A DNA stretch of 64,000 nucleotides from Nitrososphaerota archaeon (GTDB lineage Archaea; Thermoproteota; EX4484-205; JAAOZP01), in NCBI GenBank assembly GCA_011605725.1, contig JAAOZP010000004.1, positions 32,001-96,000 of the forward strand, in the 5' to 3' direction. The notes under the pieces are model-generated. The model did no database searches. It was not told where the DNA came from and worked only from the letters and a program-made list of their open reading frames with translations. The translations under genes were made by a program, and so were the position numbers. Of this stretch, positions 1,739 through 45,239 are shown piece by piece (within the stretch, counting starts at the first letter, position 1; each line of letters starts with the position of its first letter).

Positions 1739-1984
1739 ATGGAAAGTAAGGTAGAAGTTAAGAAGGTGGATCCGCAGGGCCGCGTTATTCTGCCCGCTGA
1801 CTGGCGCCAATCCGAAATGAAAGAAAGTAGAGAAATATACATAATCCGAGAGAAAGGGTATTTGAAGATAATCCCGAAGCGTAAAGTTGATTTAACCGAA
1901 TACTTTGATAAAGTTGATTTAAACGTCGAAGCCATTGAGAATTGGAAGAAGTTTGAGAAAAGGCTCTACGGGAGGCGCTCATGA
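1739..1984 (+). CDS. AbrB/MazE-fold antitoxin (VapB-like)
   Basis: KKVDPQGRVILPADWR motif; ATGA overlap with a PIN gene. Confidence 0.85.
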   Translation: MESKVEVKKVDPQGRVILPADWRQSEMKESREIYIIREKGYLKIIPKRKVDLTEYFDKVDLNVEAIENWKKFEKRLYGRRS

Positions 1985-3786
1985 GGTTCTTAGACGCAAA
2001 CATTTTCATCTACGCCTATTACAAACCGAAGAGGCAGCTCTCCCAAAAAGAGAAGCATATGAAGGAGTATGCCAAGAAGATAATTAGCAATGTATCTCAA
2101 GGAAAAGAGAAGGTGGCAACCACGGTTGTGCATCTTTCGGAGATTGTGAACATCCTCAAGCACGGCATGACCGTGGATGAATTAGCTAAACTCATCACCG
2201 GCTTATTTATGCTGGACAATGTTGAAATATATGGAGTGTCTAAGGAAGACTATTTTGCCGCGGTTGAGTTGAGTAAGGACTTAAAGATTGAGCGCGCGCG
2301 CGCTATCGTGTCCGTTCTCAGCGGGAACAACTCCATTTCTTGGGCAACCCTGAGTAAGTGGAACAGCACGAGCAAATCTTGGGATTACAACATTAAGGAC
2401 TTGAAGTCGAACATGAAGTCAGCACCCGGGTTAAGCTACATGGAGATCTGGGTGGACAAGCAGGACATAGGGTACACCCCTAATGGAATAAACTTCTTCA
2501 TAGAATCGTATGCTGAGGTTGGGGCTATGCTGGAGACGGAGCTGACTTACGTCATAGGTTCCTCGAAGAAGGGAATTACTTTGGACGGGGAACCGGATGA
2601 CTGGGGCACCATAGCCCCGTTGAAGACATTTCCATCAAAGAGGATAAACCCTCCTGAGCTGGAGGCTTCAAGCGTTTACATTGCAAACGATGATAAGAAT
2701 CTCTACTTCAGGTTTGACACGAGGGGAAAGCCCACCACAACAGTCAACGAAGGAGAATTGTACAGAATTACAGAAAGTTACCTTGACACCGATAACAATG
2801 ATAACACTGGATACATAGGGCGTGGTGGAGCAGAATTCAGAGTCTACGCATCCTTCTTTGTTAACGTGTCGAAATACACTCGCGTGCGCTACGAGAAGTA
2901 CACCGGGACGGGGCGTGATTATAGTTGGCAGGAGATTTCTGAATCATGGAACGCTGGGGACTTCAACAGCATCTTCGAATTCAAAATACCTCTCAGCATG
3001 ATTGGAGTAGAGACCGGTAGAACAATCGGCCTCTACATAGATGCGTTCTTGTGCATTTTTTATCGTAATATTCCCCAGCCCGGTCATTTGACGTATCCTC
3101 CGGATACTACTCCACCAGTCACAGCAATAGCTCTGAGCAAACCTAAGCATCAGGTTGGTTCAACAACCTATGTCTCCGGCTCAACGCTTTTCGAGCTCTC
3201 GGCAAGCGATGCTAGTGGAGTTAAGGAGATAAAGTATAGGGTTGACAATGGTCCATGGAATGCCTACACGGCAGGCTTCACGCTGTCAGGGTTCTCTGAC
3301 GGTTCTCACACGATAAGCTATTATAGTGTCGACAATGCTGGAAACACTGAGACCGAGAAAACCCTTACAATAATGCTGGATAAGACTCCTCCAACGATAG
3401 GCGAAGCATCGCCAACCGGAACCATTGGCTCAACATCAGTAACTTTCACGGTTAAGGTCGAGGACTCCGGCTCAGGAGTTAAGGAGGTTAAGCTAATCGT
3501 CGACGGTGCTTCCCAAGGCTTGATGAGCCAAAGCGGAAACACCTACACTAAAACGCTAAGTCTGTCAGAAGGCTCTCACACCTGGAGCATCGAAGCGGTT
3601 GACAACGTGGGAAACACCGCAACCCGAAACTACTCTCTCACATTCTCCACATGGATGAGCCTACTACCCTACCTTATAGCTGCTACCATAGTAATCGTAA
3701 TCATCATAGCCACCGCAGCAATCATGCTTAGGAGGAGACGCGCACCACTACCACCGCCCCCGCCTCCACCACCTCCTCCACCATAA
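1981..3786 (+). CDS. Chimeric ORF: truncated PIN/VapC toxin (~aa 1-103) fused to the C-terminal part of a surface protein (carbohydrate-binding-like, OmpL47/Ig-like domains, TM helix, poly-Pro tail)
   Basis: MRFLDANIF PIN start; the PIN sequence stops at palindrome 2291-2304 (reads ERARA). It is followed by TLDGEPDDW, DTTPPVT, YYSVDNAGNTE, a TM segment and RRRRAPLP11. Confidence 0.8.
   Translation: MRFLDANIFIYAYYKPKRQLSQKEKHMKEYAKKIISNVSQGKEKVATTVVHLSEIVNILKHGMTVDELAKLITGLFMLDNVEIYGVSKEDYFAAVELSKDLKIERARAIVSVLSGNNSISWATLSKWNSTSKSWDYNIKDLKSNMKSAPGLSYMEIWVDKQDIGYTPNGINFFIESYAEVGAMLETELTYVIGSSKKGITLDGEPDDWGTIAPLKTFPSKRINPPELEASSVYIANDDKNLYFRFDTRGKPTTTVNEGELYRITESYLDTDNNDNTGYIGRGGAEFRVYASFFVNVSKYTRVRYEKYTGTGRDYSWQEISESWNAGDFNSIFEFKIPLSMIGVETGRTIGLYIDAFLCIFYRNIPQPGHLTYPPDTTPPVTAIALSKPKHQVGSTTYVSGSTLFELSASDASGVKEIKYRVDNGPWNAYTAGFTLSGFSDGSHTISYYSVDNAGNTETEKTLTIMLDKTPPTIGEASPTGTIGSTSVTFTVKVEDSGSGVKEVKLIVDGASQGLMSQSGNTYTKTLSLSEGSHTWSIEAVDNVGNTATRNYSLTFSTWMSLLPYLIAATIVIVIIIATAAIMLRRRRAPLPPPPPPPPPPP
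2291..2304. repeat. Palindrome AGCGCGCGCGCGCT at a gene-fusion junction
   Basis: Perfect 14-bp palindrome, read directly. Confidence 0.9.
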
Positions 3787-6504: not shown

Positions 6505-7126
6505 GCTGATTAGTTTGAATATAAAAAGCTGGGGTAAGCACGTGTCAAAGGCGCGTTATCTTTACATACATTGAGCTTTTCCGGATTTTCGGATAAAAAT
6601 GTTAACTACTGTCTAAATCTATTTCATGAGAACCAAGTTAGCCCTAAAGATATGTGTTCACTAATCAGAAAGAATCTTACTCTTTAACTCCCTTCTAAAT
6701 CTTTTATACTTCAATAATTAATTGAAGTTGATTAACTGGAATAGCGTGTGCTGGTTCTGATGGATTAACATACTCTTCCAATTTGGAAGATTCCTTCTTC
6801 AAGTCCAAAGCATCCATTTCAGACCAGTAGTTTATTAAAAAAGTATACAGGACAATGTTTATATGATCCCATCCTACGTTTAATGATTTAGCCACAATGC
6901 TTATTAAACTCAGTGTTTCAGATGTTCAAGATCTCGCTGAAATCTTGTTTGAGAAGTGTATTAGGCCTGAAAGTAGCATGCACGCAGAAATAGACGTCTT
7001 CTTGAAAGATTTGATATTGATCGATCTCTAGCTTCAACACCTTATAGTAGTGCTGCAAAGAACCGTTTTCGCGAATTAATCAAGAATATTAACGGTACTG
7101 ACAAGTTCATTAAGGTCGTATCATAT

Positions 7127-7666
7127 TTGATTGAAACCAAGATCTCTCCTCAGGATACAGAAACCATAAGCGATCTTAGTCGGATCTTTGCCCCCTACGG
7201 TATTACTATTTCTGCTTCTGATAACAATTTGACCCTGCAATCGACATTAATGATTTCACAGAAGCTTCTAGAAGAAGAGCGTTATTGGTTAGAAGAAAAT
7301 GCGCCTGAAAAAACAATTACTCATCTTCGGCAAGCTCACGAAAAGTTAGGCCGAGGAGAATGGGCAGAGACGCTGTCTGCCTGTCGTAACGCATTGGAAT
7401 CTTTAACAAAGAGCGGGTCCTTTACAGGATTTATTAATGAACTTGTTGAAAAAGAAATCATAGCGAAGGGGGAGGAACAGAGGATGAAAGATGCTGAGTT
7501 ACTTAAAACCATATACGGATTCTGCTCTACAATCGGGTCACATGCGGCAGGTCAGGTGTTGGCAAATGAACAGAGGGCAAGAATGGGCTTGTTGATAACA
7601 GAGGCGGCAATCTATTTTTTATGTAGGCAGATGGAGGAAGCTAGAAGTAAAGGGATTTGTAGATGA
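7127..7666 (+). CDS. Abi_C/HEPN-like protein, probably 5'-degraded
   Basis: EWAETLSACRNALESL...GSHAAG...ARMGLLITEAAIYFL resembles the abortive-infection C-terminal domain; the upstream region has stops. Confidence 0.5.
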   Translation: MIETKISPQDTETISDLSRIFAPYGITISASDNNLTLQSTLMISQKLLEEERYWLEENAPEKTITHLRQAHEKLGRGEWAETLSACRNALESLTKSGSFTGFINELVEKEIIAKGEEQRMKDAELLKTIYGFCSTIGSHAAGQVLANEQRARMGLLITEAAIYFLCRQMEEARSKGICR

Positions 7667-7714
7667 ATAATGCTAATTTCGAGCGTTTGTTGCTGAAAAC
7701 GGTAACGTGCTACG

Positions 7715-9078
7715 CTATATGTAGTACCTAATATCTTTTACAACTTCATCCGATTGAAGACCTGCTTTGAGTATTTCAATTATGTTCGAGGCATACTTTA
7801 CTGTAACAGGCTCTCTGAGCATTAAATTGGTGTTATTCCAATCCATCTTAGTTAAAGCGAATATTTCTTTTCCTAATTTCTCAATTTCTGTTTTTCCATA
7901 ATCCATATGAAATTCTAATGGCTTCGGAATTCCGATACCTGGATAGGTTTTAAACGATTTAACGTACCCAGTCGTATATAACAGCCCTTTGGTGGCATCA
8001 ATCCTATAAAAAGTTCCTCTTGAAGGAGGCATTTTTCCATCTCCGAAAAACCTTAGAGATGGATTTTCAATGATGTTTACTAAGTCATAGGTAATGTCAA
8101 ATTTTGATAACACTTCTTCCACCCCTTCCTTTTCAGAGGGATTAAAGAAAGTTGTTTTATGCAACACTATTTTTTCAGGAGGATTGCCTATTTTTTGCCG
8201 GTATTCCTCGATCAATTTTTCAATTAAAACTGAAATCTTTTCCCTATTGAGATGATAGCTCCCATCAGTTTCTAATGTGAAATCTTTCCCAAACGCTTCA
8301 CTTGTAATTGAAACTACTGACACATGCTCTCCGTACTCGTTAAAGATTTCTGCCAAGCCGGATAAAACAGTTTGTCCGCTTTGAAGCTTTTTATGCCATA
8401 GGCTATGCCTATGAATGATTCAGTGTCTGTGAACTCCTTCAGCATCCAAGGTACTCCACCAGCCTTAACGTATAGACCAAGAGAGAGATTCCACATGTTT
8501 TCACAGACATATTTAGAAGCGAGTGCCTTCTCAGTAAGTATTTGACTTGCTATCCCTCTTTTGACCGCTAGCGCTTTAATCGATCTCCGTAAATTATATG
8601 ATAGTTGAGGATTATCATATTTCTCTAGCTCTTTGGGAATCTGAACTACCAGTACTTCATATTTTCCACGCATTTTATCATGAAATTCTTGGATTTTGTC
8701 ATCGTATAATTGAACAATTTCTTTAAACATATCCTTGGCCCACAACATCTTTGAAACATCGGAATCAGTTATCTTAATAGCTTCCCCTTCAGAAGGTATT
8801 CTTATAGGTACTTTATAGATTGTCTGAAAGCCTTTATATTTGATATCTCCAACTTTCTGCTCCGAGAAAGTATAATTAAGCTTCTCTAGAAAACTAATGA
8901 TCTTTGCAGGTTCTTTACATATTAACCCGAGCCGGATTTCTGGAAAGCTTCTCCTTCCTGAGTTAAAGTCTAGAGGTCCATGAAGGGATAGACCAACTTT
9001 AGGATCGATTATTGTTTCTTGGATTCCTAATCTAAATCTTAATTCAGGCTCAGTCCATACTACAGCTCTATCTACCAT
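7715..9078 (-). pseudogene. ago: Short prokaryotic Argonaute (MID+PIWI, catalytically inactive), split by a 1-nt frameshift
   Basis: EPELRF, GLSLHGP, SQIL, NLSLGLYVKAGGVPW, FIGIAY, KIVLHKT, PPSRGT, LLYTTG, PKPL, ALTKMDWN, EPVTVKYA. Adding one A to the run at 8388-8392 joins the ORFs (GIKKLQSGQTVLSGLAEIF), giving ~454 aa. Confidence 0.9.
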
Positions 9079-9874
9079 AGAAATCACTCTCCACCTCCTC
9101 CATTTTAGTGAATTCAGTACTGAAAACTAATCCTTCTCTCAAATTTCCAACCGGAATACTAATTTCCTCTTTTCCGTTACTTAAAAGTTTGACGATAGCG
9201 TTTAAAACGTTTCTCTTTTCAGGATTTCGTTTCAAGGCAATTTTACGAAAATCAAAGTAGAAATCTTTGGATCTAATTAAAGCAGGCCCAGCTTCTAAGT
9301 AAGCATTCTTGCTATTGCATACCATGTCTTGGGCTTCTAATACCGCTTTAAGAGGTAGAATCGGTTTCACTTTTGGAAGCAAAGTAAGTGCAATCCTGCT
9401 CCCCAAAAATTCCAGCCAGTAACTAAATCCTTCAAAAACGATGAGTCTTTCTCCAGAACTATTATAAATTTCATGGACTAATTCAGTATCTTCAAATCGT
9501 GTTGGTTCTAGGATAAAAGCTTGTTTTAAAAGCTTATTCATCCTTCGAGGTTGCCAAACAGAAACAGAATTATGTTTTACAAAATAAAAATGAAGCGCCT
9601 TATAAAAAATTGGTCGGATAATTTCCCAGTTGTTAACAGGATTTAAAGTAATTGATGAAGTATAAGCTGTCGTAAAGCCGTGTTCTCTAAGCTTCGTACT
9701 AACAGCTTCTTCATCTCCGATGAAGTATAACCTTCCACTGTGTAAATAATAGCAAGCATCATGAATAGGTCCAAGTATTTTATTCAACTGAGTGAATTGA
9801 ATGTTTATATCTATAACCTTGAAATCTTGTGGATGTTTTTTTAACATAAGCGAGTTAAGCATTAGCTCAACCAC
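9068..9874 (-). CDS. Ago-associated protein, N-L1/L2 lobe-like (Aga1/APAZ-like)
   Basis: Overlaps the ago start. N-terminal ELMLNSL and IVFEGFSYWLEFLGSRIALTLLPK resemble Ago N/L1 motifs. Confidence 0.65.
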   Translation of the reverse strand: MVELMLNSLMLKKHPQDFKVIDINIQFTQLNKILGPIHDACYYLHSGRLYFIGDEEAVSTKLREHGFTTAYTSSITLNPVNNWEIIRPIFYKALHFYFVKHNSVSVWQPRRMNKLLKQAFILEPTRFEDTELVHEIYNSSGERLIVFEGFSYWLEFLGSRIALTLLPKVKPILPLKAVLEAQDMVCNSKNAYLEAGPALIRSKDFYFDFRKIALKRNPEKRNVLNAIVKLLSNGKEEISIPVGNLREGLVFSTEFTKMEEVESDFYGR

Positions 9875-9876
9875 TT

Positions 9877-11244
9877 CTAATCACCATCTTCCGCTGAAAG
9901 AAGCTTTTTAACTAAATAACCAAGTAATGGCATGAACTTGAATAGCTCCAAAATACTGACTTCTCCTCCTTTCCGTAAAAAATATAAAATTCGTACGAGC
10001 CATATCCAAAGCCATATTGAAATCCCCGGTATCCAACATTCTATAATAACTTTTATTACGATTTTAATCGGATCCTGTACGAGTTCTTGAATGAGGGCAA
10101 TAACAGTTCTGTAGTCTAAAGCTAAAATCTTTAATACTATTTCTGGAAAAAAGATGAAAGTGAAAAAGCTCGTTATGCTTGTCATCAAAAGTATTATTTG
10201 ATATTCTTTTCTTCTCACCCCTAAATAACCTTTCTTTGACGCATTAAACACTTCTTTCATTCTTAAGAACTCGTCCTTATTCAGCATAATGGCAGAAGAG
10301 CGATTGTGAATATCCAGAGCCTTAAAAGCAAGGGCATGAAACTTCGGATTTATCCTAGGTAGTTCTCCTAACTCTGGAATTTGTTTGATACTTATACCTT
10401 TGTTTTCAACGCTTATATGTCCGGCCCAGGTTTTTCCTTCTTTTACTTTGGCATCTATAATTGATTTTATTGCTTCTTGAGGGTAAGTACTGTTCATTAA
10501 GCTTATTATTTCTCTAAGTCCTCTTTCTAAGGAAGGGCTAAGTGAATTTTTGAATTCTTCTTCTAGTCTTCTTTCTAGTTCTCTAATAAATATTATGGCA
10601 AATTTTTTATTCTTAAAAATTATACAGAGTTTAGCTAAAGTTTCGTCGGATATCCCATCTATATGCTGTATTATTTCCTGAAGGACATTTTCTTCTAACT
10701 CTAAATCCGTCTTTTTAACATCTAAACCATATAAACAATCGATTGCTTTTTCATAATCCCGATTTTTAGTAAACTCTTTATATTTTTCCATTATCCATGA
10801 TAGGGCTGCTTGGATGATCTCGTTAAATTCGTTAATGTTCGAAAGTGATCTCAAGACTAAACTTGCAAATTCGTGGTTATTTAGCCAGTTTCTTTTCTCT
10901 GCTTCACTCAAAATCAAATTTAAACTACTTAATAGCATATTTGAAACCTTTCTTTTTTTATAAAATACCTCGGTTGCAAAACATAATCCTAAAATAAATT
11001 CCGTATTAAGGAGCGAACTTAGTTTTCTGTCTTTAATCTTCTCGAGATCTTCCTTTAATAAAATTTCAAGTTTTCTCAAATCTTCATTACTTAGAGTTTT
11101 TAGGTGGACTGCTATCCAAGAAATAGAGTAAAGATTTTTATCGGCATAAGCCCATTCAAACTCTAGGCGTAACTGGTTCTCTAAAGCCCGGTATATCGGA
11201 TTTTTCATTTCAGAGAATTTTAGACCTGATTCATTTTCCATCAT
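9877..11244 (-). CDS. Helical protein with C-terminal TM segments; candidate Ago membrane effector (Aga2-analogous)
   Basis: Hydrophobic segments IILLMTSITSFFTFIFFPEIVL and IVIKVIIECWIPGISIWLWIWLVRILYFL. ATGA-coupled to hsdS and 2 nt from the next gene. Confidence 0.55.
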   Translation of the reverse strand: MMENESGLKFSEMKNPIYRALENQLRLEFEWAYADKNLYSISWIAVHLKTLSNEDLRKLEILLKEDLEKIKDRKLSSLLNTEFILGLCFATEVFYKKRKVSNMLLSSLNLILSEAEKRNWLNNHEFASLVLRSLSNINEFNEIIQAALSWIMEKYKEFTKNRDYEKAIDCLYGLDVKKTDLELEENVLQEIIQHIDGISDETLAKLCIIFKNKKFAIIFIRELERRLEEEFKNSLSPSLERGLREIISLMNSTYPQEAIKSIIDAKVKEGKTWAGHISVENKGISIKQIPELGELPRINPKFHALAFKALDIHNRSSAIMLNKDEFLRMKEVFNASKKGYLGVRRKEYQIILLMTSITSFFTFIFFPEIVLKILALDYRTVIALIQELVQDPIKIVIKVIIECWIPGISIWLWIWLVRILYFLRKGGEVSILELFKFMPLLGYLVKKLLSAEDGD

Positions 11245-12548
11245 AACTCACCCTTAAATGCCTTATCTAAGATAGACGGAACAAGTTTTTCAAGTTCCCC
11301 CTCTGTTCTTTGTTGAAGCTTCTTGAGAGATTCTATAATTTCGCTTATTTTATCAAGATAATCTATCATCTTCTTCTGTTTCTCAAGAGGAGGGAGAGGA
11401 ATCATTACCTTTCTTAAGAACTCTACCGGAACTCTTTGCTGACCCACACTGCCGGTCATATTTTTAGCAGCCTCATCTCTGAAAGATTTTTGTCTAATAT
11501 AGAAATGAATCCATTCGGCATGTACTTTCGATGAAGGTCTCAATACATGAAATTCGGTAGAACCAAAGCCTATTCCATTGATTAAACCCCTCGCTATTGC
11601 TGATTTCCCATTTTCCATGCAAGGCGTTATTTTTGCAAATAAAACATCGCCTTCCTTAAAGTAAGTATATCCTTTTTTTACCTCACCTAACAATCTAATT
11701 TCCGGCCTCTCAATCTTTCCTGTAACTTCACTGACAGCAGACATAGGAACAAACGTAACTTGCATATTATCAGGAAGATTTTTTATCTCGTGTTTTGCAG
11801 GGTTAATTTCACAGACTTTGCCCAATTCTGCCCGTTCCCATCCTTCTTCTTCGGCTCTGCTGAAGACTTTGTTTAAGGCTGCTTGCATTATTTTCTCGGC
11901 TTCTTCTCTTGCTTGTTTTCTAAGCCTCTTGGCCTCTTCAGCCCTGTTGACGAGTTGTTCTAAGCGTGAAACTATGCGTCTTTGCTCTTCAAGAGGCGGA
12001 AGAGGGATTAGAATAGTAGCTAATTTTTTTCTCGATATTTCCTTAAAAGTAGCTCCTGAACCCAACGCATTCATTTCTTCGACTTTGGTTAACAGAGTGT
12101 AATAAACAAAATCGCTTAGAACATGATTTGCATCCCTAATGACGATCGCTTTACAACCTTGGTTAAAACACATATTATCTCCTGCAATTGCAATATGTCC
12201 TATGGGCGCCCTTGTGGAAATTATTATAGATCCTTTCGGCACGATTGTTGTAGAACAGCTCTCCAAACCTTTTTGAGTTATTTTCCTTTCGGTATCAAAA
12301 ATGAATTTACCTATTACCTTACCGAGATCCCTTGGTGTAACCCACTTAATATTTCCTCTTTCCCAGTATTCTATGACATTAGTCTTGGGTGTTGATCCAG
12401 TTTCGATATGAAATAATTTTTTGTCTCCCAGCCTTACCCATTTCCACCCTTCAGGTAAATCGTAAGGTCCCCGAATCCCTTCTTGATCCTCAATTGCATT
12501 ACCTATTGTTTCTCTTGTATAAGTGTCTAATTTAATCTGCTTACTCAT
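11241..12548 (-). CDS. hsdS: Type I R-M specificity subunit
   Basis: Two TRDs with LPEGWKWVRLG, IPLPPLEEQRRIV, IPLPPLEKQ and SILDKAFKGEL. Confidence 0.95.
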   Translation of the reverse strand: MSKQIKLDTYTRETIGNAIEDQEGIRGPYDLPEGWKWVRLGDKKLFHIETGSTPKTNVIEYWERGNIKWVTPRDLGKVIGKFIFDTERKITQKGLESCSTTIVPKGSIIISTRAPIGHIAIAGDNMCFNQGCKAIVIRDANHVLSDFVYYTLLTKVEEMNALGSGATFKEISRKKLATILIPLPPLEEQRRIVSRLEQLVNRAEEAKRLRKQAREEAEKIMQAALNKVFSRAEEEGWERAELGKVCEINPAKHEIKNLPDNMQVTFVPMSAVSEVTGKIERPEIRLLGEVKKGYTYFKEGDVLFAKITPCMENGKSAIARGLINGIGFGSTEFHVLRPSSKVHAEWIHFYIRQKSFRDEAAKNMTGSVGQQRVPVEFLRKVMIPLPPLEKQKKMIDYLDKISEIIESLKKLQQRTEGELEKLVPSILDKAFKGEL

Positions 12549-13986
12549 GGCCTTCACCAAGAATGTTGCGGAATTCTTCAAGTATTTCTAAAATCTGTCT
12601 TTCCTTCTCAAGTATGCTTTCAACCAGTTCTTCCGGCTCTGCGTATACTGTTTCCTGTTTCCTGTTCGGATTCCTCGCAGTTAAGTCATAGTCCCTTTCT
12701 CTAATCTCCTCTATCGAGACTATCCATGAGTTTTCCGAGACCTTTCTGTTTTTCCACTTTCCGTAGCAGTCGGCTAGATGCTCGTCTTTAACGGGGTTTG
12801 CCTTAGTATAGTTCTCCCCATTCGGCGGGATAAGCTCGTAGTACCATATTTCCTTCGTAGGCCCGGTTCTGTCGAAGAACACTAGGTTTGCCTTGGGTCC
12901 TGTTCCTCCTTTAGGAGCTATGTGGGCGAAGGTGCCGGGGGGCAGGCTTATTATCGTGTGAACGTTAAACTCTTTCAACAACTCCATCTTAACCCTTTTA
13001 TAAGCTCCACCCCTGAATAAAACTCCTTCCGGCAAGACTATCCCGCATCTCCCGCCTTTCTTCAGCTTTCTCATGCAGTATTGGAGTGCTGCAAGCTCTG
13101 TCGAGCCTGTTGGCACTGGCAGGTTTTCCTGAAGAGTCTTAGCTAGGCTTCCGCCGAAAGGAGGATTGGTGAGTATTACGTCAAACCTTTGAGACGGCGT
13201 GTCGACAACGTTTTCCTCGAAAGTGTCTCTTCTCACTATGTTTGGCAACAGTAGTCCGTGCAGGATGCAGTTCATCGTTCCTATGAGGTAGGGCAGCGCC
13301 TTCAACTCCTGCGCGTAAAAGGTCTTCTCCTCAAGCATCTGGTACTCCTCCGTAGTGAGTTTCCTCTGCTCCTTCATCCACCTGAAGGATTCAACCAGGA
13401 AGCCGCATGACCCGGCGAGCGGGTCGAAAACCGTTTCACCTATCTTAGGGTTGACGATCTTCACCATCAGCCTAACTATGGGCCTCGGCGTGTAGTATTC
13501 CCCGGCTGCCCCGCCCTCCCTGCCCATCATCATCAGAAGCTCCTCGTAAAGCTGGGAGAGCGTGTGGGAGTCCTCAGGGTTTGTGAAGTCGATGCTGCTC
13601 AGCATCGTAACCACTTCCTTCAGGTTGAACGGGTCCCTCATCTGCTGCCTAACCTCTGCGAAAAGCGTTGCTATCAGGTTTCTCTCCTTCGAGCCGCGTA
13701 GCTCTCTAAGGTAGCGCAGCAAGTCTGTTTCTATGAAGTTTTTAAGCTCCTCAGCCTTCATGTCCCCCCTAGCCCAGTTGGACCAGCTGTACTTTGGGTC
13801 TATGATTGGCTCGTAGGTTCTTCCCTCAAACTCTGCTTCAAGCCTATACTCTTTCTCCAGGTCCTCGAAGATTTTCAGGAAGATCAGCCATGAGAGCTGC
13901 TCCATGTAGCCCAGGATGGTTAAACCGTCTCTCCTCATTATCTCGCATACCTGCTCGATCTTATTCGCCAGCTCCCTCCTATCCAT
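12541..13986 (-). CDS. hsdM: Type I R-M N6-adenine methyltransferase
   Basis: GEYYTPR, DPLAGSCGFL, TNPPFG, GIVLPEGVLF. Confidence 0.95.
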   Translation of the reverse strand: MDRRELANKIEQVCEIMRRDGLTILGYMEQLSWLIFLKIFEDLEKEYRLEAEFEGRTYEPIIDPKYSWSNWARGDMKAEELKNFIETDLLRYLRELRGSKERNLIATLFAEVRQQMRDPFNLKEVVTMLSSIDFTNPEDSHTLSQLYEELLMMMGREGGAAGEYYTPRPIVRLMVKIVNPKIGETVFDPLAGSCGFLVESFRWMKEQRKLTTEEYQMLEEKTFYAQELKALPYLIGTMNCILHGLLLPNIVRRDTFEENVVDTPSQRFDVILTNPPFGGSLAKTLQENLPVPTGSTELAALQYCMRKLKKGGRCGIVLPEGVLFRGGAYKRVKMELLKEFNVHTIISLPPGTFAHIAPKGGTGPKANLVFFDRTGPTKEIWYYELIPPNGENYTKANPVKDEHLADCYGKWKNRKVSENSWIVSIEEIRERDYDLTARNPNRKQETVYAEPEELVESILEKERQILEILEEFRNILGEGHE

Positions 13987-16506
13987 CTACCTGCGCACCC
14001 CAGCTGGTTGGACGAGCTCCGGGTAAAGCCCCTTCTCAATATCCTGGATAACCTCTTTTAAGGGTTCCAGCCCCCCGAAAATCTCGATAACCCCTTTCAA
14101 TGCCCCCATCTTGTCGAAGGGCGGTGTTCTGAACACTTTCGGGTCAGTTATCTCGTCGATACCGGCAATCTTATACCTGTCGACCAGCTCTAGGATAACT
14201 TCCCTCGCGCCCGGCCCGTATTTCTCTATGAATTCCCTCTGAAGGTCCAGTAATGCTCTAGCCCTCTCATCCCTGCTTAGGACGGGTGCTTTAAACAGGA
14301 TGTGCGCTATCAAGTCGAACTCCTCGGCCCCAGGCTTCTTAAGAAGCTTCGACAATATGTTCAGGTTTATCCCTGACTTCTCCAAATCCTCCTTGAATTT
14401 AATCCTCTTCGCCCTGTCCCTCCATATTCCGGCAAGCTGGTCTAGGGTTGTGATCCTCTTAATCAAACCGTTTTTACAGTACTCCACGTACTCAGCGTCT
14501 AGCAGCTCGTTTCCGAGAACATTGGCTTTAACAATACCCTCCTCAGCTATGTAAACTTCAACGTTTTCAGCCCTTATCAGCTCCCTCCTCTCCCTAACCT
14601 CCCTCTCCAGGCTGATGACTACGGACTGCTCAGGAGTTGGGAAAGTCGGCACGGTAGTCTCCTTCTTCCTGTATCCGCCTGCAGCCACGTCGATTTTAAC
14701 ACTGCCTCTCGGAACGTCTTTAAGCAGGATTAAACCGTTTTCATCAGTCTTCAACGTCACCGGCTTGCTCGGGGCTACAAGAGCCATGACGGATGCTTTC
14801 GCAATGCCCACCCCGGTTTCAGCGTCAATAACCCTGCACGCCAAGTACCAGTCCGCTGGCCCCTCATACTTTTTCCCAATCTCCGGCAGGTCCCATTCGT
14901 CGAAAAGCCTGGTTGCATCAGTATAATCGATTATCCGGAAGGTGAACTTTCTCGAGTTCTCGTCTATTCTCGCCCCCCTCCCTATTATTTGGTGAAACAC
15001 TACTTTGGAATCTATATGCTTCAGGAACACTATGTTCCTAACAGGCGGTATGTCCACCCCCGTGCTTAGCAGGTCGACCGTCGTGGTGACTACTGGAAAA
15101 TCCTTCTCAGAATCCTTAAACTCCCTCAAAACTTCGTGAGCATAAGGCTCGTCTGTAACTACTCTCACAGCGTAGTTTCTGGCTCCAAATATGGGAGCGA
15201 AATAATTGTTCAGCTCCTTAGCCACCTCCGCCGCGTGCGACTGGGAGACGCAGAAGATAGCGGTCTTCCCCTTCGGACCTGTGCTTTCAAGGATCCTAGC
15301 TAGATGCTCGCATATCCTCTTGGTTCTGTCGGGAAGCGTTATCTCTCTTTCAAACTCCTCCACAGTATAGTACTCTTTCAACTCTACTCCTGGGGGGACT
15401 TCTATTTTAGCGCCTTGGCTCTTCGCTTCAGTTATGTTGAGAACACCCGACTTATCTATGTTGGTGAACACCCTGATTATCTCGCAGGGCGCCAGATATC
15501 CGTCTTCAATCCCCAGCCGCATAGGATAATCGTAAACAGGCTCTCCAAAATACGCGTACGTGTCTATATTATCATCCCTTTTAGGCGTGGCCGTTAAGCC
15601 CAGGTGAATAGCGTTAGAGAAATATCTTAAAATCTCGTGCCACCTCTTCCACCCCGACCTGTGGCATTCGTCGATTATTACCATGTCGAAGAAATCCGGT
15701 TCGAAAAGCTCATAGATCTTCTTACCGTCTTTCTCGCTGTAAAGAGTCTGGTAGGTGGCGAAGTATATGTCCCTGTGTTTCGGAATGCTCTCTGCCCCCA
15801 CTAGTTCCTCCCTAGCGTTCCCGAATGGGAAGAACATGTCGTGAGCCTGCCTCCTGAGAAATATCCTGTCAACCAGGTAGAGGACCCTCCTCACCCTTCC
15901 CGTCTTGTAGAGCTTCCAGACTATTTGGAAGGCAACATAGGTCTTACCGCTGCCCGTGGCCATCGTGAGCAAAACCTTCTTCCTACCTCTAAGTATGGCT
16001 TCTATCGTCTTCCTGACGGCAACCTCCTGGTAATATCTAAGCGGCCTCTCGGGAAAAGGATAATAGGGGTATAGCAAAGGGTCTTTCTCCGTGACCTTGC
16101 CCAATTCTTTTCCTTCAACATATCTCCTCCATAACTCTGATGGGGATGGGAATTCCTCTAAAGTAGTTTGACGCTTATGAAAATCGTCATACTCCTCAAT
16201 CTTATGCCCGTTGGTGAAGTATGCGAACGGTACTCCCAGCCTCTCCATGTATTCTTTAGCCTGCTGCATTCCTGTTAGGTGGGACTCTTCCTCCGACTTC
16301 GCCTCTACGACGGCGAGCGGTACCCCATTCTTATCCGGGTAGTACAGTATGTAGTCCGGCCTCCTGGTTGGGAGACGGTCTCCGCCATCATTTATGATCA
16401 TGCCCCTTGCTATCGCTTTATCCCTCTCCACCATTTTCTCAGTCCAGCCGCTTCTCTGAAGCTTAGGGTCGATCAGCTTCGCCCTCGTATCAGCCTCGTT
16501 AAGCAT
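13987..16506 (-). CDS. hsdR: Type I restriction subunit (EcoAI/EcoEI-like)
   Basis: NEADTRAKLIDP, PD...VEAK nuclease, ATGSGKT, IIDECHRS, LTATP, STGVD, QIIGRGAR, EcoEI_R_C-like tail. Confidence 0.95.
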   Translation of the reverse strand: MLNEADTRAKLIDPKLQRSGWTEKMVERDKAIARGMIINDGGDRLPTRRPDYILYYPDKNGVPLAVVEAKSEEESHLTGMQQAKEYMERLGVPFAYFTNGHKIEEYDDFHKRQTTLEEFPSPSELWRRYVEGKELGKVTEKDPLLYPYYPFPERPLRYYQEVAVRKTIEAILRGRKKVLLTMATGSGKTYVAFQIVWKLYKTGRVRRVLYLVDRIFLRRQAHDMFFPFGNAREELVGAESIPKHRDIYFATYQTLYSEKDGKKIYELFEPDFFDMVIIDECHRSGWKRWHEILRYFSNAIHLGLTATPKRDDNIDTYAYFGEPVYDYPMRLGIEDGYLAPCEIIRVFTNIDKSGVLNITEAKSQGAKIEVPPGVELKEYYTVEEFEREITLPDRTKRICEHLARILESTGPKGKTAIFCVSQSHAAEVAKELNNYFAPIFGARNYAVRVVTDEPYAHEVLREFKDSEKDFPVVTTTVDLLSTGVDIPPVRNIVFLKHIDSKVVFHQIIGRGARIDENSRKFTFRIIDYTDATRLFDEWDLPEIGKKYEGPADWYLACRVIDAETGVGIAKASVMALVAPSKPVTLKTDENGLILLKDVPRGSVKIDVAAGGYRKKETTVPTFPTPEQSVVISLEREVRERRELIRAENVEVYIAEEGIVKANVLGNELLDAEYVEYCKNGLIKRITTLDQLAGIWRDRAKRIKFKEDLEKSGINLNILSKLLKKPGAEEFDLIAHILFKAPVLSRDERARALLDLQREFIEKYGPGAREVILELVDRYKIAGIDEITDPKVFRTPPFDKMGALKGVIEIFGGLEPLKEVIQDIEKGLYPELVQPAGVRR

Positions 16507-16689
16507 GCTCCCCCGCCTTTATCCCATAGAATTATGCTTCAGCACGTCTTATTCTTTTCGATTTCATACGCTTTATTTACCTCTTTAAATGGGTATGGGC
16601 AGGATTAAGGTGGTCAAAGAGAATGGCCAGAAGAAGGATACTATTGAGTTATTGCTTAACATTAAACGGCCCGTGAAAAGATATCAAAA

Positions 16690-17410: not shown

Positions 17411-19165
17411 TTATCCTCTAGCCAACTTAACTGTTCTTTCAACTGCCTCCCATATTTTGGATTTGAATAGTTCTTCTTTCTTATCTTCCTGGAGGTTTTT
17501 TATAAAATCGTATGCTTCATTGGGATGGATTTTTTCTCCTTCCTGCCTTTCCCAGCCCAGCTTCTTGATCTCGTCCTCTAACTCTCTATCAAGTTTGATG
17601 CATACATTTTGATCAATAAGATCGCCGAGCTCAACATCATGATCCGCTAAGATTATGAACGGTATCTCATATTTCCTTAATAACTTAATCCACTTTTTAA
17701 AGTTCTCTTTACCGCCTACATCCACGACGGTCACATCGTTTTGATCAAGTATATTCTCTTTCAATTCTGAGATCGCTATAACTGTAGCGTGATCCGCCGG
17801 GCCCTCTACCAGGAGAACGCTGTTAGAAAAGAATACTTCTGGTCGGAATTCATGCCGTTGAATTGCAAAACCGTTCGTCGGCGCTATGACCGTGCTTTCG
17901 TTATCATCCTTTCTCACATAAATCAGCCTCCTATCTTGTGTGCCTTGCAGTAGACTAAGGTCAACAAAGTATGGCGAATGCGTTACTATTATTGTCTGCA
18001 CGTCTTTCTTATCCATCAATATTTTACTTAGCAAGGTTATTTTCGTTTGGTGGAGGTGGAGAGCTGGTTCATCGAGTATAAGAATAGGATGTTCCGGAGC
18101 CGATATTAATGAAAGCATATAGAGAGCTTCAAAATAACCTGACGCACTCTCATGTAATCTAACACGCTTAGAACCCTCCTTTATGACTACGTATCTTTTC
18201 TTTCCAGTTAGAGCAGAGGTTTCTTCTTCATAAACGTCAAACTCTATGGACTGAAATATTTTTTGGAAATCCTGCTTTAATTTATCGTAGTTCTCAGCTA
18301 AAGGCTCTTTATTCTTTAGATCGAAAAGATTATTCGCTAGCTCTTCCAAAGAGGGCCTATGCTCAGATATGAAACATAGCCTATTCTCTAGCATTACCGC
18401 AAGCAACGTCCAAAAGGATGAGTGTCCTGTAAAACTGTATCTGGAGAGTTCTTTTATTGCATTCATAACATATTGTTTATCACGGTTTGTAAGGTATATA
18501 GTATCATCTATGTGAAATCTTGAACAATGAGATTGCTCAAAAAGGGTTTTTATATAAGTAGTGTCAAAATTGAGGGTCAGAGAAGGCATGTTTTTCTGCA
18601 TCTCCGGGAATTCCCTGCGAGAAGATTCATTTAATAGCTCTAATGCTTTTCCGGGATCTTCTCTAGAAATCGTTTGGGGCAACATTCCCCGATAGGCAAC
18701 ATATGATTCTCCTTCTCTACAGGAAGAATATAATATGATTCCATTATCAAACTATAGCGCCACGAAATCTGGTCGCACCTCTGCCGTGTCGGCAGTCGGC
18801 TTCCAGTATACGATCAGGGTTGAAATCTCATAGTCCTTATAGTAGGATTCGAGTTCTTCTGGAGGAGTATCCTTTCTGCTAACAGAATCAAGCAGTAAAT
18901 TTACTTCGCTTTCAGAAAATTCTACTCTCATATTTATTGAGCATTCAGAATTTTTATTAAACCTTAACTCATTTGAGATACCAGTGAGTGAAAGGCTTGG
19001 AGGACCAGAAGAGGGTGCACTAGGTTTAGTCAGGAGTTTCAATATTCTGATGAGGTTTGTCTTTCCACTCGCGTTTCTGCCTACTATAACATTATAGTTT
19101 CCAAAGCTGAAGCTAGCATCCTTATAGCTGTACAAATTCTTTATTTGTATGCTTTTAATCTTCAT
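17411..19165 (-). pseudogene. OLD-family ATP-dependent nuclease (ABC ATPase + TOPRIM), interrupted by one in-frame TAG
   Basis: GRNASGKT Walker A in the 137-aa ORF; ILDEPALHLH, VTHSP, LVEGPAD, DVGGK, ADHD in the 424-aa ORF. Both ORFs are in the same frame, separated by TAG 18752-18754 and 22 open codons. Confidence 0.85.
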
Positions 19166-40139: not shown

Positions 40140-43100
40140 TCAACCACCCAGTTTAACCTCTACCCATCCGAAGAATATTTTCTCTGGGGTTATATAAGCT
40201 ACTATGGCATAGCCCTTCTCAGGCACTATCCATTTTCCTTGTTCTGCCATATCTTTGTGATTCTTAAGTTGTCTTATTGCCTCATCAAGCTTTTTATTCA
40301 CCTCTCCCAAAATCTCTGAAAAATCCTTAGGTGTTTCAGGCGACCAGAGCGACTTCTCCTCAATGGCTAAGATTATCTTATTCCCATCTACCTGCATAAT
40401 GTCGAATGGAACTTCAGGAGTATTCTCCCCAGCGGTCTTCAACACCGGTTTACTGGAGTCGTATCCAAAGTTCTGCTGGTAGTTCTCCAGGAGCAATTTC
40501 TCCGTAAGCGCGTATGCGGCATATCCTCTCGTGCTAGGGTCGAGTAGGCACTTTCCATAGGAAAAGGCGTCCTGAAACTCCTCTCTCATATTGGCTTCTA
40601 TCTCCCCCAGCTTCCCTGAAATACTAGCCCCTTCTGCGGCTCTGAGCAGCTTGTCCTCTACCAAGGAGTACTGCGGATCCTTAACGCTGATGAACTCGTT
40701 CTTGAACCCTCCGGTAGCGGGGTCCAAGTACATGTAGTGCCTATTTACATGTCCCCTATTATCCTCGTAGTATATCTTCAGAATCTTGCTCTCTATGCTT
40801 CTTCCGTTCAAATCCGTGAATGATTCCGTAATATATTCCACATTCCTTACGAGGTATGCGTGAGGCTCGGAGACATACTCCACTTTCGACAGCCATTTCC
40901 CTCCATCGGGATCTATCGTCGTGGCAATCCAGAGCTTCTTACCCGAGCCAAGTTCGAGCTCCCAGAGAATCACTCCGCTGATTACTTCCCCCTCCTCATT
41001 TCCAATCTTTATATCATATTTATACTTGGGCTTGGCTGAGACCGATGAATCTTTAATGCTAACTATGCCTTCATTCTCAACCTTGTATTCTATGAGGTTT
41101 TTAAGGTACTCAGTTGTAAAGGTGTTGGAGAGTTCTTCCCAAGAGACTTGTCTAAGCCGTAGGGCGTAGACGCCTTCTCCATAGGATTTTAAAGTGACGG
41201 TACGCCCGTTCGAATCCCAAATCTTGTAGTGAGACTCACCGCCTATCTCCTCATATTCTATGATGCAGATCCCCGGGTTATTGTAACTAAGGAATTTACC
41301 AAAAGATCCTTCAGAAATCAGTGTTATATCTTCACCTATCTCCTTTGCTGTTGAGAAGAAATAGTCTGGCTCAACCGCTCCTTTAAGAGTAGCAACATAG
41401 TCTCCGTCTTTCATGTCAAACGCGCCCATGAGTGCACCACCACCTTCAACCTTCTGAGGATATACAACAACGGTACCGCCGATCGCCCCAATATGTGCTA
41501 ACGCCCTATATTCCTTATCTCCTTTGTTTAGAGATAGGGTGACGACATCTCCTTCTTTAAATTCCAGCTCCTCTGCAAGCCCTTTGGATAAGCATGGATA
41601 TACATACTCACCATATTTCATAACTCTTAAAGGAACTCCTAGTCTATGATACTTCTTAGAATATTCCAAAGTATCGCTCCATGCTTCAAGCGCCTTAATC
41701 CCGAATGTCTTCACTTGATCGAGGAAGTAACCTATTATCCCGCTGACTCTTTCCTCACCTATTTGAAGCTGTTTAGAATAATATTTTTCTAAATCAAAAT
41801 AGGTTTTGAACAGTTTAAGCCCGTTTTCGAAGCTGTCCCCTATTCCTTTAGCTGCAAGCGCCTTCCCAATGCCATCGAGGCCCTTTTTATCGAGCTTAAC
41901 TAACTCCGGAATAAGCTCATCGAGCATTTCGGACTGCGAGCCTTCAAGCTCCTCTACCTTGCCGTTGCTCAGCCACTTAACGAGACCAGTGGCAGCGTCC
42001 TCAGATTTCTCAGCCACGTTTGAAACCCTGTTGAGCGTTTTCTCCGCAAAGTCCTCCGAGATCTCGAGGAGCTTTCCGTAGAGTTTGAAGACGCTATCCC
42101 CTGCTTCCGGCAGCTTTCCGACGAGTTCCTTACACGTATCTCCATGCCCCGCTAGGATTCCTGCACCGTCGTTGATGTATTCGACGTCCCCGGGCTTAAC
42201 CTCCTCCTCGCCCGCAAGCTCTCCGAGCCTGAATTCAAGATCCTTCCAAATCCCCTCAATCCCCTCCGGAACCCTTCCAAGCACCCTTTTCATGGTGCGC
42301 ACGAACGCGTGGGCCTTCGCAATCGCATCGATGTTTATCGCGATTCCTTTCCTTGCGAGCTTGCCCGCGAGGGCTACGGCATCTACGAGCGGCGAGGTCG
42401 CCCAGGCTCCCGTCGCTTCCCCAAGGCCAAACTTCTTCGGGTCTTTTACTATGTTCTCCCTGTAATAGTTGGCGAACGAGTAGAAGGCTCCGAGCTGTGC
42501 AAGCGCCCCAACGACCTTTCCGAGGGAAGCCCAATGCTCCATCGTAACCTTGGCGCTTTTAAGCTTCCCATTCAGCTGCGACGAAATAGCGTAGGCACGT
42601 TCGTATTCCTCGGGCATGTTCAAGCCCATAAGCTTCTCAGAGGCGTCTGACATCGCATCGATAAGCATTCCTCCCTCGAACAATTCCCCGACGTTCTTCA
42701 AATCGTCGAGGCTAAAGCCAATGCTTTGCTCCATGAAGACATCTAGGGCGCTCATGGCTCCTTCCCCAAGCTTCCTCAGCTCCTCAGCCTCTTCGCGCAG
42801 TTCCTCGGAGAACTCGTTTTTACCGCTTCGCCTCTCGATGATCGCTGCAAGCTCCTCAAGCTTCTCAGCATTTCTCTTAAACTCCTCGCTAGACCTCAAT
42901 ACTGCGTTGAGCTCGAGGGCGTTCATATATGCGCCGTAAACGTAGTGATAAATGAAGAGGAATGTATGAATACCCGCGACCGCCGCCACGCCAGCCTCCT
43001 CGCCAAGCACTATTGGAAGAGCCTCGGGGGCGACGACGAAGACTATGAACATGAACACGATGCTCGGGATGAAGCGTTTCGCCCCGTTCCAAATGCCTTT

Positions 43101-45239
43101 AGCCCAATCCGGAAGGTTCTTATAGATATTCTGATATGTATAGCTGTCCGATTCGAAAACATACGGTATTTGATGGCAGGCAATAGGCTTCCATCGGCTC
43201 CTATCGGTCAAGTCGCTTCCCTCAGCCTTAACCAGCAGGACGTCTACGAAGACCTTAGCTGTCGGGTCCCCGATCATGGCGCTGAAGACGTTCATAGGGT
43301 CCTTAGCCAGCTCCGGCAGGGTCGTCCGCATTCCGTCGAAGCGGAGGTAGGGCCAGAACTTCACGTCGGAAGAGTAGTTCCCCTTCGGCAGGTCCATCGG
43401 GTATTCATCCGGCTCAGGCTCAAACCACCACTTGGCATCTGACGGAACGCCCCAGAGCCTTGAAACTACCTTATCGTCGAGCATGGCCAGCACACAGCTC
43501 CTAAGGGCCTCGCCGTACGCGTTGTTTATCGAGAAGGAGAGGACGTGTTCCCTTCCCAGTATCCCGGACCCATTTATGTTCGCCCTCGGCACCACTGGAA
43601 ACACGAGGGTGAATTCCCCACTCGGCACCTCTTCCCTCCTAACCCTGTAGCCAGTCGTAGAATTATAGTGTCTAGCGGTTTCAAGGGAGTACGTGTAGTT
43701 CTTAACTATCCATCCCCCTTCCACCACCCTCTCAACCAGGCAGTTCTGCAAAAGCGAAGCGCCCAAGTCCTTTTCCCCAACCGACCCCGCCAGCAGGATG
43801 GCGTTTCCACCCACCTCATCCAATACTCTTCCAGTAGGCTCCATCTCATAGTAATAGCTGGCTGTCTCAACCCTGCGGTAGGCGTCGTAAAGCTCCATCC
43901 TCTCTTTCTCATAAAGAACGTAGAGGTCCACGTAGTAGGTGGTGGTCTCAACCCCGTCGAAGACTATCGCATACTCACCCGTGGAATAGGATGAGGCCTC
44001 GTCCTCGCTGAACCTTCCAACGTATTCCCACTCAACCCTGTGGAACGGTTTATAATCCTCCCCCTCCGGTACTTCCCCCGGTTTCTCCTCAACATCCCCC
44101 AGGTAAACCCACTCACCCCACCCTCCAGTATGAATGCTCGCGTCGTCGACGTGCAGCTCCGAATCCCCCTGTGCCACGAAGGAAACCTCGTATTCGCCGG
44201 GAGCCGCAAGGATGCTGGAGACGTCTAATGAGAGCCGCGTCCATTCAGAGCTTGCTCCAAGGGGAATGATCGTTGCCCCTCCATCCGGGGTCTTTATCGT
44301 AACCATGCCCTTCCCACTAAGCCTATAGCTGAACTCAAGGACTGGGTAAGCGCTCCCGTCATAGCTGAATGCTTGTCTCCAGGCGCCGCGACCCCATGGG
44401 CCGGCCATAATCCTCAAGCATGATGGTTCACTCGTGTAGCTGGATGTGCAAAGCTCTCCGAACGCTTCTCCGAAACTCTCGAACAACCAGAAGAGGGAGG
44501 ACCCCATATCCCCATTCTTGATGAACTCGCGGATCGGCTCCTCAACCCACTTGTAATGATGGTAGAGCACCCTCGTTACTATCCTGTAGACCTTGAAATA
44601 GTTGGTCTGCCTGAACCTTATCCCACTGCCGTCCTTCTCCAGCCTATAGCCCGGGTTGTCAACGTAGCTCTTCGCCTCCTCCTCATCTACCAGGTCCCTA
44701 ACTACCCATGCCTCGCCCTCAACCGGCTTAAACATCCATGTATTCGCATCGTAATCCGGAGGAGGCGTAGTAACCCTGCCGACGTAGACCCATGATTCGT
44801 TGAATGAGAGGACGCGCCTAGATAACCTGTACTCGTAGTGCTTCCTGCTGGAGTTCTCATATCTTTCAACGTATACGGTGTCGCCGTCCCCCGGCTCCCA
44901 TCCAACCGGCAAATAGATATTGTAGTAGGTGCCATTTACAACCTTCTCCTCGATAATGTAGCGGGTCTTCCCCTTGGCGGCAAGGTGGATGAGCACGCTG
45001 CCGTTCGCCAACCCGTACATCCTGCTTATCCACGATTTGTTCGCATCATAATCCTCAAACTCCCTTAATTTCTCTTGGAACTTCTCATTCCCCCATCCCT
45101 CATAGATGGCCCTCTTCAAGAAATCGATCATGTTCGTCGACTCCTCGGGCTGAGCCCTCACGATGATGGAAATCGGAAGTATGAACAGCTCCTCGACGAA
45201 AAGGAGGATTAGCAGGAGGCCGATTATCCTCTTAATCAC
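40140..45239 (-). CDS. Large exported protein with C-terminal PD-(D/E)XK nuclease-like domain (candidate polymorphic toxin)
   Basis: Signal peptide, beta-rich/CBM-like region, hydrophobic hairpin (IVFMFIVFVVAPEALP), coiled coil, C-terminal PFDIMQVDGNKIILAIEEKS...EAIRQL. Confidence 0.65.
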   Translation of the reverse strand: MIKRIIGLLLILLFVEELFILPISIIVRAQPEESTNMIDFLKRAIYEGWGNEKFQEKLREFEDYDANKSWISRMYGLANGSVLIHLAAKGKTRYIIEEKVVNGTYYNIYLPVGWEPGDGDTVYVERYENSSRKHYEYRLSRRVLSFNESWVYVGRVTTPPPDYDANTWMFKPVEGEAWVVRDLVDEEEAKSYVDNPGYRLEKDGSGIRFRQTNYFKVYRIVTRVLYHHYKWVEEPIREFIKNGDMGSSLFWLFESFGEAFGELCTSSYTSEPSCLRIMAGPWGRGAWRQAFSYDGSAYPVLEFSYRLSGKGMVTIKTPDGGATIIPLGASSEWTRLSLDVSSILAAPGEYEVSFVAQGDSELHVDDASIHTGGWGEWVYLGDVEEKPGEVPEGEDYKPFHRVEWEYVGRFSEDEASSYSTGEYAIVFDGVETTTYYVDLYVLYEKERMELYDAYRRVETASYYYEMEPTGRVLDEVGGNAILLAGSVGEKDLGASLLQNCLVERVVEGGWIVKNYTYSLETARHYNSTTGYRVRREEVPSGEFTLVFPVVPRANINGSGILGREHVLSFSINNAYGEALRSCVLAMLDDKVVSRLWGVPSDAKWWFEPEPDEYPMDLPKGNYSSDVKFWPYLRFDGMRTTLPELAKDPMNVFSAMIGDPTAKVFVDVLLVKAEGSDLTDRSRWKPIACHQIPYVFESDSYTYQNIYKNLPDWAKGIWNGAKRFIPSIVFMFIVFVVAPEALPIVLGEEAGVAAVAGIHTFLFIYHYVYGAYMNALELNAVLRSSEEFKRNAEKLEELAAIIERRSGKNEFSEELREEAEELRKLGEGAMSALDVFMEQSIGFSLDDLKNVGELFEGGMLIDAMSDASEKLMGLNMPEEYERAYAISSQLNGKLKSAKVTMEHWASLGKVVGALAQLGAFYSFANYYRENIVKDPKKFGLGEATGAWATSPLVDAVALAGKLARKGIAINIDAIAKAHAFVRTMKRVLGRVPEGIEGIWKDLEFRLGELAGEEEVKPGDVEYINDGAGILAGHGDTCKELVGKLPEAGDSVFKLYGKLLEISEDFAEKTLNRVSNVAEKSEDAATGLVKWLSNGKVEELEGSQSEMLDELIPELVKLDKKGLDGIGKALAAKGIGDSFENGLKLFKTYFDLEKYYSKQLQIGEERVSGIIGYFLDQVKTFGIKALEAWSDTLEYSKKYHRLGVPLRVMKYGEYVYPCLSKGLAEELEFKEGDVVTLSLNKGDKEYRALAHIGAIGGTVVVYPQKVEGGGALMGAFDMKDGDYVATLKGAVEPDYFFSTAKEIGEDITLISEGSFGKFLSYNNPGICIIEYEEIGGESHYKIWDSNGRTVTLKSYGEGVYALRLRQVSWEELSNTFTTEYLKNLIEYKVENEGIVSIKDSSVSAKPKYKYDIKIGNEEGEVISGVILWELELGSGKKLWIATTIDPDGGKWLSKVEYVSEPHAYLVRNVEYITESFTDLNGRSIESKILKIYYEDNRGHVNRHYMYLDPATGGFKNEFISVKDPQYSLVEDKLLRAAEGASISGKLGEIEANMREEFQDAFSYGKCLLDPSTRGYAAYALTEKLLLENYQQNFGYDSSKPVLKTAGENTPEVPFDIMQVDGNKIILAIEEKSLWSPETPKDFSEILGEVNKKLDEAIRQLKNHKDMAEQGKWIVPEKGYAIVAYITPEKIFFGWVEVKLGG

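Follow-up and report, generated by a model that had tools for sequence, protein, structure and literature searches.

A putative membrane-acting Argonaute module with a stand-alone APAZ protein in a hot-spring Thermoproteota archaeon

Our analyses of a 64,000-nucleotide stretch from a Nitrososphaerota archaeon (assembly GCA_011605725.1, contig JAAOZP010000004.1, positions 32,001 to 96,000; hereafter the window) point to a three-gene cassette coding for an inactive short prokaryotic Argonaute (pAgo), an APAZ protein predicted to lack any effector domain, and a candidate effector that combines an alpha/alpha toroid with two transmembrane (TM) helices. The host is a hot-spring member of the Thermoproteota, and the cassette sits with type I restriction-modification (R-M) genes in a defence island. 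By analogy with characterized Argonaute systems, we propose, with a probability of about 0.68, that these three genes form an abortive-infection module in which target recognition would trigger depolarisation of the host membrane by the toroid-2TM protein. The module most likely resembles SiAgo-Aga1-Aga2 of Sulfolobus islandicus in its working, yet belongs neither to the SiAgo clade nor to the canonical short pAgo groups S1 and S2.

The cassette and its proteins

The cassette consists of three genes read in the order effector, APAZ, ago:

9877-11244, minus strand: candidate membrane effector gene, 455 aa; 2-nt gap to the 268-aa gene
9068-9874, minus strand: stand-alone APAZ (N-L1-L2) gene, 268 aa; 11-nt overlap with ago
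7715-9078, minus strand: ago (ATG at 9078, stop at 7715), 454 aa when read through; PADLOC pAgo matches for both halves and PDB matches

The Argonaute comprises MID and PIWI only, without PAZ, and its 454-aa read-through aligns over its full length with models and structures of short pAgos. In an alignment with long-A Argonautes, the catalytic Asp positions are taken by A226, T309 and S431, which correspond to the IGIA, LHK and YAS motifs from which the initial annotation had rightly read replaced catalytic residues; the tetrad is substituted as judged at these three positions, the alignment of the Glu finger being unreliable. The 5'-phosphate pocket is kept (R164, K168, Q179, K205). The PADLOC model PDLC02436 was rejected as a model for SiAgo, as it scores best on Argonautes linked to TIR- and Schlafen-APAZ proteins.

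The 268-aa protein is predicted to be an effector-less APAZ, or N-L1-L2, lobe. Its model (AF2, pLDDT 87) finds its best structural matches in the APAZ domains of SPARSA, SPARTA and SPARHA, followed by AfAgo-N and SiAga1 (Foldseek E 1e-10 to SPARSA/SPARTA APAZ and 1.7e-9 to SiAga1; VIA Z 17.1 to SPARTA APAZ, 13.4 to AfAgo-N and 12.3 to SiAga1), and these full-length matches bear out the earlier expectation of an Argonaute N-lobe fold. Since the APAZ fold covers residues 1-268 of 268, without PAZ, no room is left for an effector domain; neither a Pfam domain nor a fused effector domain was found in this protein. Its likeness to SiAga1 is structural only, with no sequence similarity between the two.

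Because no enzyme domain is fused to APAZ, the 455-aa protein is the only conserved candidate effector of the module. It is predicted to consist of an alpha/alpha toroid (residues ~12-320) followed by two C-terminal TM helices (~350-375 and ~399-420; AF2 model, pLDDT 76). The toroid reaches VIA Z values of 13-15 to TED, terpene-cyclase and glycoside-hydrolase toroids, and Atlas features of a distant bacterial homologue also indicate a toroid. Hydropathy and charge, namely the basic flanks of the TM helices, predict both termini to be cytoplasmic, and the 2-TM topology is kept in distant homologues. Profile searches gathered a family of 78 representatives of 430-470 aa, including one named Bathyarchaeia and one Lewinellaceae. 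Searches with effector sequences found nothing in Pfam, PADLOC or PDB sequences, nor did the effector match Foldseek PDB, BFVD or Atlas structures (TM-score under 0.4) or PLSDB plasmids, a result that does not by itself prove a new fold. Several charged residues are strongly conserved (K205 in 98% of sequences; K205, E224, E245 and R315 at ~90% or more; also E28, D169 and E201), no column being invariant, and a DxDD-type cyclase motif occurs in 3 of 46 family members and not in the 455-aa protein. The top background match of the toroid profile (E 0.002), a 246-aa gene (L049:764-1504) that lies 3' of an unrelated Argonaute of 611 aa, hints at a wider family of Argonaute-linked helical domains.

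As the initial annotation had supposed, the 455-aa gene travels with ago homologues. After collapsing duplicates, 20 distinct loci were retained, window included, 19 of them with readable downstream DNA; in all 19, what follows the TM gene is either the APAZ-ago pair or a single longer Argonaute. This association holds down to ~30% Argonaute identity, including bacterial two-gene forms, and the reverse look-up found the TM gene upstream of 7/7 clade Argonautes identified by sequence and of one from a genome scan. The longer single Argonautes measure 777 aa (L058), 666 aa (L059), 650 aa (L076) and 648 aa (L110). A narrow APAZ profile matches both archaeal fusions, L058 and L059; it found no match in the N-terminus of the bacterial 650-aa Argonaute, where an N-lobe is presumed from length. 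The two-gene forms L076 and L110 look bacterial and code for proteins of ~435 and 650 aa. The distribution is patchy, with clear effector matches in 4 of 401 genomes of the phylum, and the neighbours of the cassette are defence genes (BREX, GmrSD and several unrelated R-M systems). At one locus (L016:2397-11371), the three genes adjoin capsid-protein genes, and carriage by a provirus is possible.

Ancestry of the Argonaute and relation to known systems

Judging from profiles and trees, the Argonaute is a lineage just outside all well-studied short Argonautes and sister to canonical S1+S2. A profile built from 39 Argonautes of this clade scores better against GsAgo (E 1e-73) and AcaAgo (1e-71) than against SiAgo (7e-21), RsAgo (2e-7) and AfAgo (0.01). 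In three MID-PIWI trees, from which long-branched rows were left out and in which proxies stood in place of PDB sequences, the clade joins the canonical short pAgos (support 99/98, 99/97 and 96/91), apart from the clade that the SiAgo orthologues form. With S1 references (SIR2 partners) added, the clade is monophyletic (98/98) and sister to S1+S2, which together (partners SIR2, TIR and Schlafen) form a 97/94 group without it; in one tree lacking S1, it appears as an unresolved basal grade. Forced grouping with SiAgo, for which the orthologue at locus L104 was used (Ago E 4e-251 to 8znj), was rejected by the approximately unbiased (AU) test (p 0.008, and 0.016 with L058 added, both under the simpler LG+G4 model). 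The label “SiAgo-like” given to the system beforehand thus fits its layout but not its descent. L058 and the SiAgo clade are the next-deeper branches and both have helical-TM effectors, so that parsimony, on limited sampling, suggests that the membrane layout is ancestral to enzyme-APAZ fusions. A scan of viral contigs with the Argonaute alignment returned only canonical S1/S2 pAgos.

Two further observations concern other Argonautes. Divergent PIWI-like proteins of 480-520 aa (348 aa in L074) from one Thermoproteota genus (L072, L073, L074 and L055) form a long branch, and those of L072-L074 precede a 190-210-aa gene. In addition, in one genome (locus L105, G519) no more than 10 kb separates a SiAgo-type system from a split long-B system equipped with a TM effector.

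SiAgo-Aga1-Aga2 (PDB 8znj/9lgw) shares with the window an inactive MID-PIWI Argonaute, a separate effector-less N-L1-L2 protein and a separate membrane protein with C-terminal TM helices whose gene lies upstream of the N-lobe gene. By contrast, its Argonaute falls in another clade, the window effector is ~90 aa longer than Aga2 and has no significant match to it, and all three window genes point the same way, unlike those of the SiAgo orthologue locus L104, which has a convergent ago. By sequence and tree, the closest Argonautes are those of SPARSA (S1; 8in8), SPARTA (S2A; 8ifk) and SPARDA and SPARHA (S2B; 9qbp, 9om4). These canonical systems have a partner with the APAZ fold, the best structural counterpart of the 268-aa protein, but no SIR2, TIR or nuclease domain is joined to the window APAZ, the candidate effector is a separate membrane protein, and the Argonaute clade lies outside S1+S2 and is nested in neither. 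The split long-B system AfAgo/AfAgo-N/Af1317 (PMC10954474) and BPAM (PMC10620215) share the inactive Argonaute and an effector made of an alpha-helical part plus TM helices, and split and single-chain forms coexist there as in the window clade. They differ in the ancestry of their Argonautes, as seen in the profile values for AfAgo and RsAgo and in the trees, and in an effector gene located downstream of ago rather than upstream; the downstream TM proteins of long-B loci showed no match to the window effector family. The Asgard HrAgo2 subclade (10.1101/2023.12.14.571608), compared by description, is reported to have an operon that contains InsG, TniQ, PCNA and TOPRIM genes but lacks a membrane effector.

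Mode of action, restriction genes and intactness

The same gene set and the same order, with the TM gene before the N-lobe gene, lead us to propose a SiAgo-like mechanism. Judging from SPARTA, SPARSA and SiAgo, the APAZ and Argonaute proteins would form a heterodimer that loads a 5'-phosphorylated guide, probably RNA, and recognises complementary invader DNA. Once activated, this complex would dock on the cytoplasmic toroid of the membrane protein, presumably an oligomer, and the latter would depolarise the membrane and lead to cell death or arrest. In the SiAgo system, guide- and target-bound Ago-Aga1 binds Aga2 (PMC11788926), which depolarises the membrane (10.1101/2021.12.09.471704). Several points weigh against this scenario: the types of guide and target are taken over from relatives, the TM region of the effector model is of low confidence (pLDDT 55-65), Z values of 13-15 are at a level that helical proteins can reach by common arrangement alone, and the strongly conserved charged residues could reflect a ligand-binding or active site instead of a pore.

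This last point leads to an alternative in which the toroid is an enzyme or a ligand-binding domain, acting for instance on membrane lipids or sugars, with the TM helices serving only as an anchor and the target switching on catalysis. Its structural neighbours (terpene cyclases, glycoside hydrolases and prenyltransferase-like toroids) and the conserved E28, D169, E201, K205, E224, E245 and R315 would fit such a role; however, non-enzymatic TED domains score equally well, the cyclase motif is rare and no column is invariant, and in known Argonaute-linked TM effectors the TM part is required (PMC10620215). On balance we find an enzymatic toroid improbable. A reading compatible with the pore mechanism is that the effector and Aga2 are very remote homologues, the whole being a SiAgo system in the broad sense with a diverged Argonaute. 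A juxtamembrane motif is shared with the Sulfolobaceae-type Aga2 orthologue of locus L104 (LlaLkkagrdkvyqL versus LIALKKLDFDKTVYV, E 4.5e-6 in a 13-sequence set), L059 holds a true family member (hhalign 97%) beside an Argonaute of the SiAgo clade, and Manakova et al. (PMC10954474) described a shared alpha-helical domain in Argonaute-linked effectors. Yet the signal falls to E 0.07-0.5 once the TM helices are removed (2,038 background open reading frames, ORFs), the profile-profile probability is 6%, Aga2 orthologues measure 350-370 aa against 430-470 aa for the effector family, and the Argonaute clades separate in the AU test. We regard such homology as a serious but slightly disfavoured option; the effector shows no recognisable Aga2 match outside the juxtamembrane stretch, in keeping with the possibly distinct effector suggested earlier.

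The cassette is preceded by the following features:

11241-12548 (ATG at 12548 likely), minus strand: hsdS, with two Methylase_S stretches; its stop overlaps the start of the 455-aa gene (4-nt ATGA)
12541-13986, minus strand: hsdM (Pfam HsdM_N and N6_Mtase), 8-nt overlap with hsdS
13987-16506, minus strand: hsdR, EcoEI-like (Pfam HSDR_N, ResIII and EcoEI_R_C), 0-nt gap to hsdM
16541-16578, minus strand: 3' remnant of a decayed gene for a small helix-turn-helix (HTH) regulator (blastn match to the HTH gene of L009, 80% over 40 nt)

The six genes hsdR-hsdM-hsdS-455-aa gene-268-aa gene-ago are arranged head to tail with spacings of 0, -8, -4, +2 and -11 nt, and these coordinates and overlaps agree with the tight one-strand block described in the initial annotation, as does the lack of a convincing palindrome breaking it. 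The terminator scan returned fewer sites than shuffled sequences (5 versus 9.0) and a single weak minus-strand hairpin at 9872-9853, where the 268-aa gene begins, so that nothing convincingly interrupts the block; a sigma-70 promoter scan is inapplicable to an archaeal host. Pfam and PADLOC assign hsdR, hsdM and hsdS to an ordinary EcoEI-like type I R-M system whose HsdS has two specificity domains. Compared with the EcoEI-like type, which has the same hsdR-hsdM-hsdS genes with EcoEI_R_C, the window form adds the Argonaute cassette 3' of hsdS, in one hot-spring lineage.

The earlier proposal that restriction and Argonaute act as one functional unit, with restriction fragments serving as guides or targets or Argonaute as a backup, is unlikely in our estimation. 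The linkage is not unique to the window genome: orthologous hsdRMS genes are translationally coupled to the TM gene in 5 of 20 loci (window, L005/8, L006/7, L009 and L013; HsdR 81-92% identical where present). Two very different cassettes, with Argonautes 28% identical, occur behind the same HTH-hsdR...hsdS frame, and 11 of the 13 uncoupled loci have an R-M, methyltransferase or BREX gene of some kind no farther than 10 kb away. But these 13 loci, where the cassette is surrounded by BREX, GmrSD, unrelated R-M systems or capsid genes, include close relatives (L010, L021 and L023, Ago 64-71% identical), and two others carry an in-frame hsdR'-'hsdS deletion scar behind the operon HTH gene (118 aa in L001, 142 aa in L058) while retaining the cassette, a third such joint being found in run X1 (11463/16255). 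Moreover, GC content differs between the cassette (33-37%) and hsdR/M (50%), and HsdS genes are frequent neighbours of pAgos in general (PMC6299218). From these comparisons, the coupling is best described as lineage-specific and hsdRMS as an optional neighbour, not a conserved part of the system, and the suggested use of restriction products finds no support. The cassette probably uses the promoter of the HTH-hsdRMS operon and the hsdS stop, through translational coupling, as an expression slot and, in the most economical interpretation, can do without restriction. A small HTH gene heads the orthologous operon in L001, L005, L008, L009 and L058, and tblastn found no intact copy in the window. 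In L058 (464-4869; G135, same genus), the HTH gene and the scar are followed by a distant TM effector and a single-chain APAZ-Argonaute of 777 aa, a cassette that occupies the same operon slot.

In the assembly, ago appears as two ORFs (8314-9087 and 7715-8356), split at the following feature:

8388-8392, minus strand: A5 homopolymer where A6 is expected, one missing A splitting ago

This break and the decay of the upstream HTH gene could mean that the window copy is a pseudogene, which we consider distinctly unlikely and which, even if true, would touch the window strain alone. Contigs from three public hot-spring runs belonging to three studies carry the extra base and otherwise match the window (X1 and X3 with 0 substitutions at the break, X2 with 10 in 453 nt), and a second one-base deletion at 6994 (missing C), 1.4 kb from the first, breaks the neighbouring gene alike. 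Both deletions are therefore probably assembly errors. The read-through has no internal stop and shares 78% identity over its full length with the intact homologue P0047, and homologues at the frameshift site read IKKLQSGQ or IRKLESGQ. Programmed frameshifting was rejected, the A5 form lacking a slippery heptamer and homologues being in frame. The gene affected by the second deletion, convergent with and 3' of ago (6897-7667, plus strand), codes for only 179 aa in the assembly as it stands and for 256 aa with the C at 6994 restored, as seen in the three runs.

Surroundings of the cassette and significance

The same defence island includes an OLD/GajA-like ATPase-TOPRIM gene (17411-19165, minus strand) 0.9 kb upstream of hsdR, split into ORFs of 137 and 424 aa, a break that another indel may explain. 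Farther away, a 601-aa ORF (1981-3786, plus strand) next to an AbrB-like ORF of 81 aa starts like a PIN toxin and then runs on into an unrelated surface-type protein, possibly as a result of rearrangement or of a misassembly fusion. At 40140-50902 (minus strand), two ORFs of exceptional length (1699 and 1888 aa) have higher GC and a secreted or surface-protein look, the first with a nuclease-like C-terminal region, as in polymorphic toxins.

In the published view, short pAgos have an effector fused to APAZ, and a separate membrane effector is a trait of SiAgo and long-B systems (PMC11788926, PMC10954474). The window clade breaks this rule. Since its effector family is missed by Pfam and PADLOC, annotation would count such loci as solo Argonautes. 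We found no paper describing this gene combination in the literature covered, which did not include the Koopal 2022/2023 surveys, where the clade may have been catalogued earlier. The question of how an Argonaute gates a membrane effector has been held back by the failure to purify full-length Aga2 (PMC11788926), and the bacterial-looking two-gene forms L076 and L110 offer a version that could perhaps be tested in E. coli. At roughly even odds, these loci represent an undescribed short-pAgo clade, sister to S1+S2 and of ancestral layout, with a free or Argonaute-fused APAZ and a separate toroid-2TM effector, which would link SiAgo-type membrane systems to enzyme-APAZ fusions and whose effector would represent a novel class of membrane proteins in immunity, the toroid gating a 2-TM pore or acting on lipids. 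The position of the clade next to S1+S2 suggests, by parsimony and with limited sampling, that membrane killing may have come first and that enzyme-APAZ fusions may be a later replacement.

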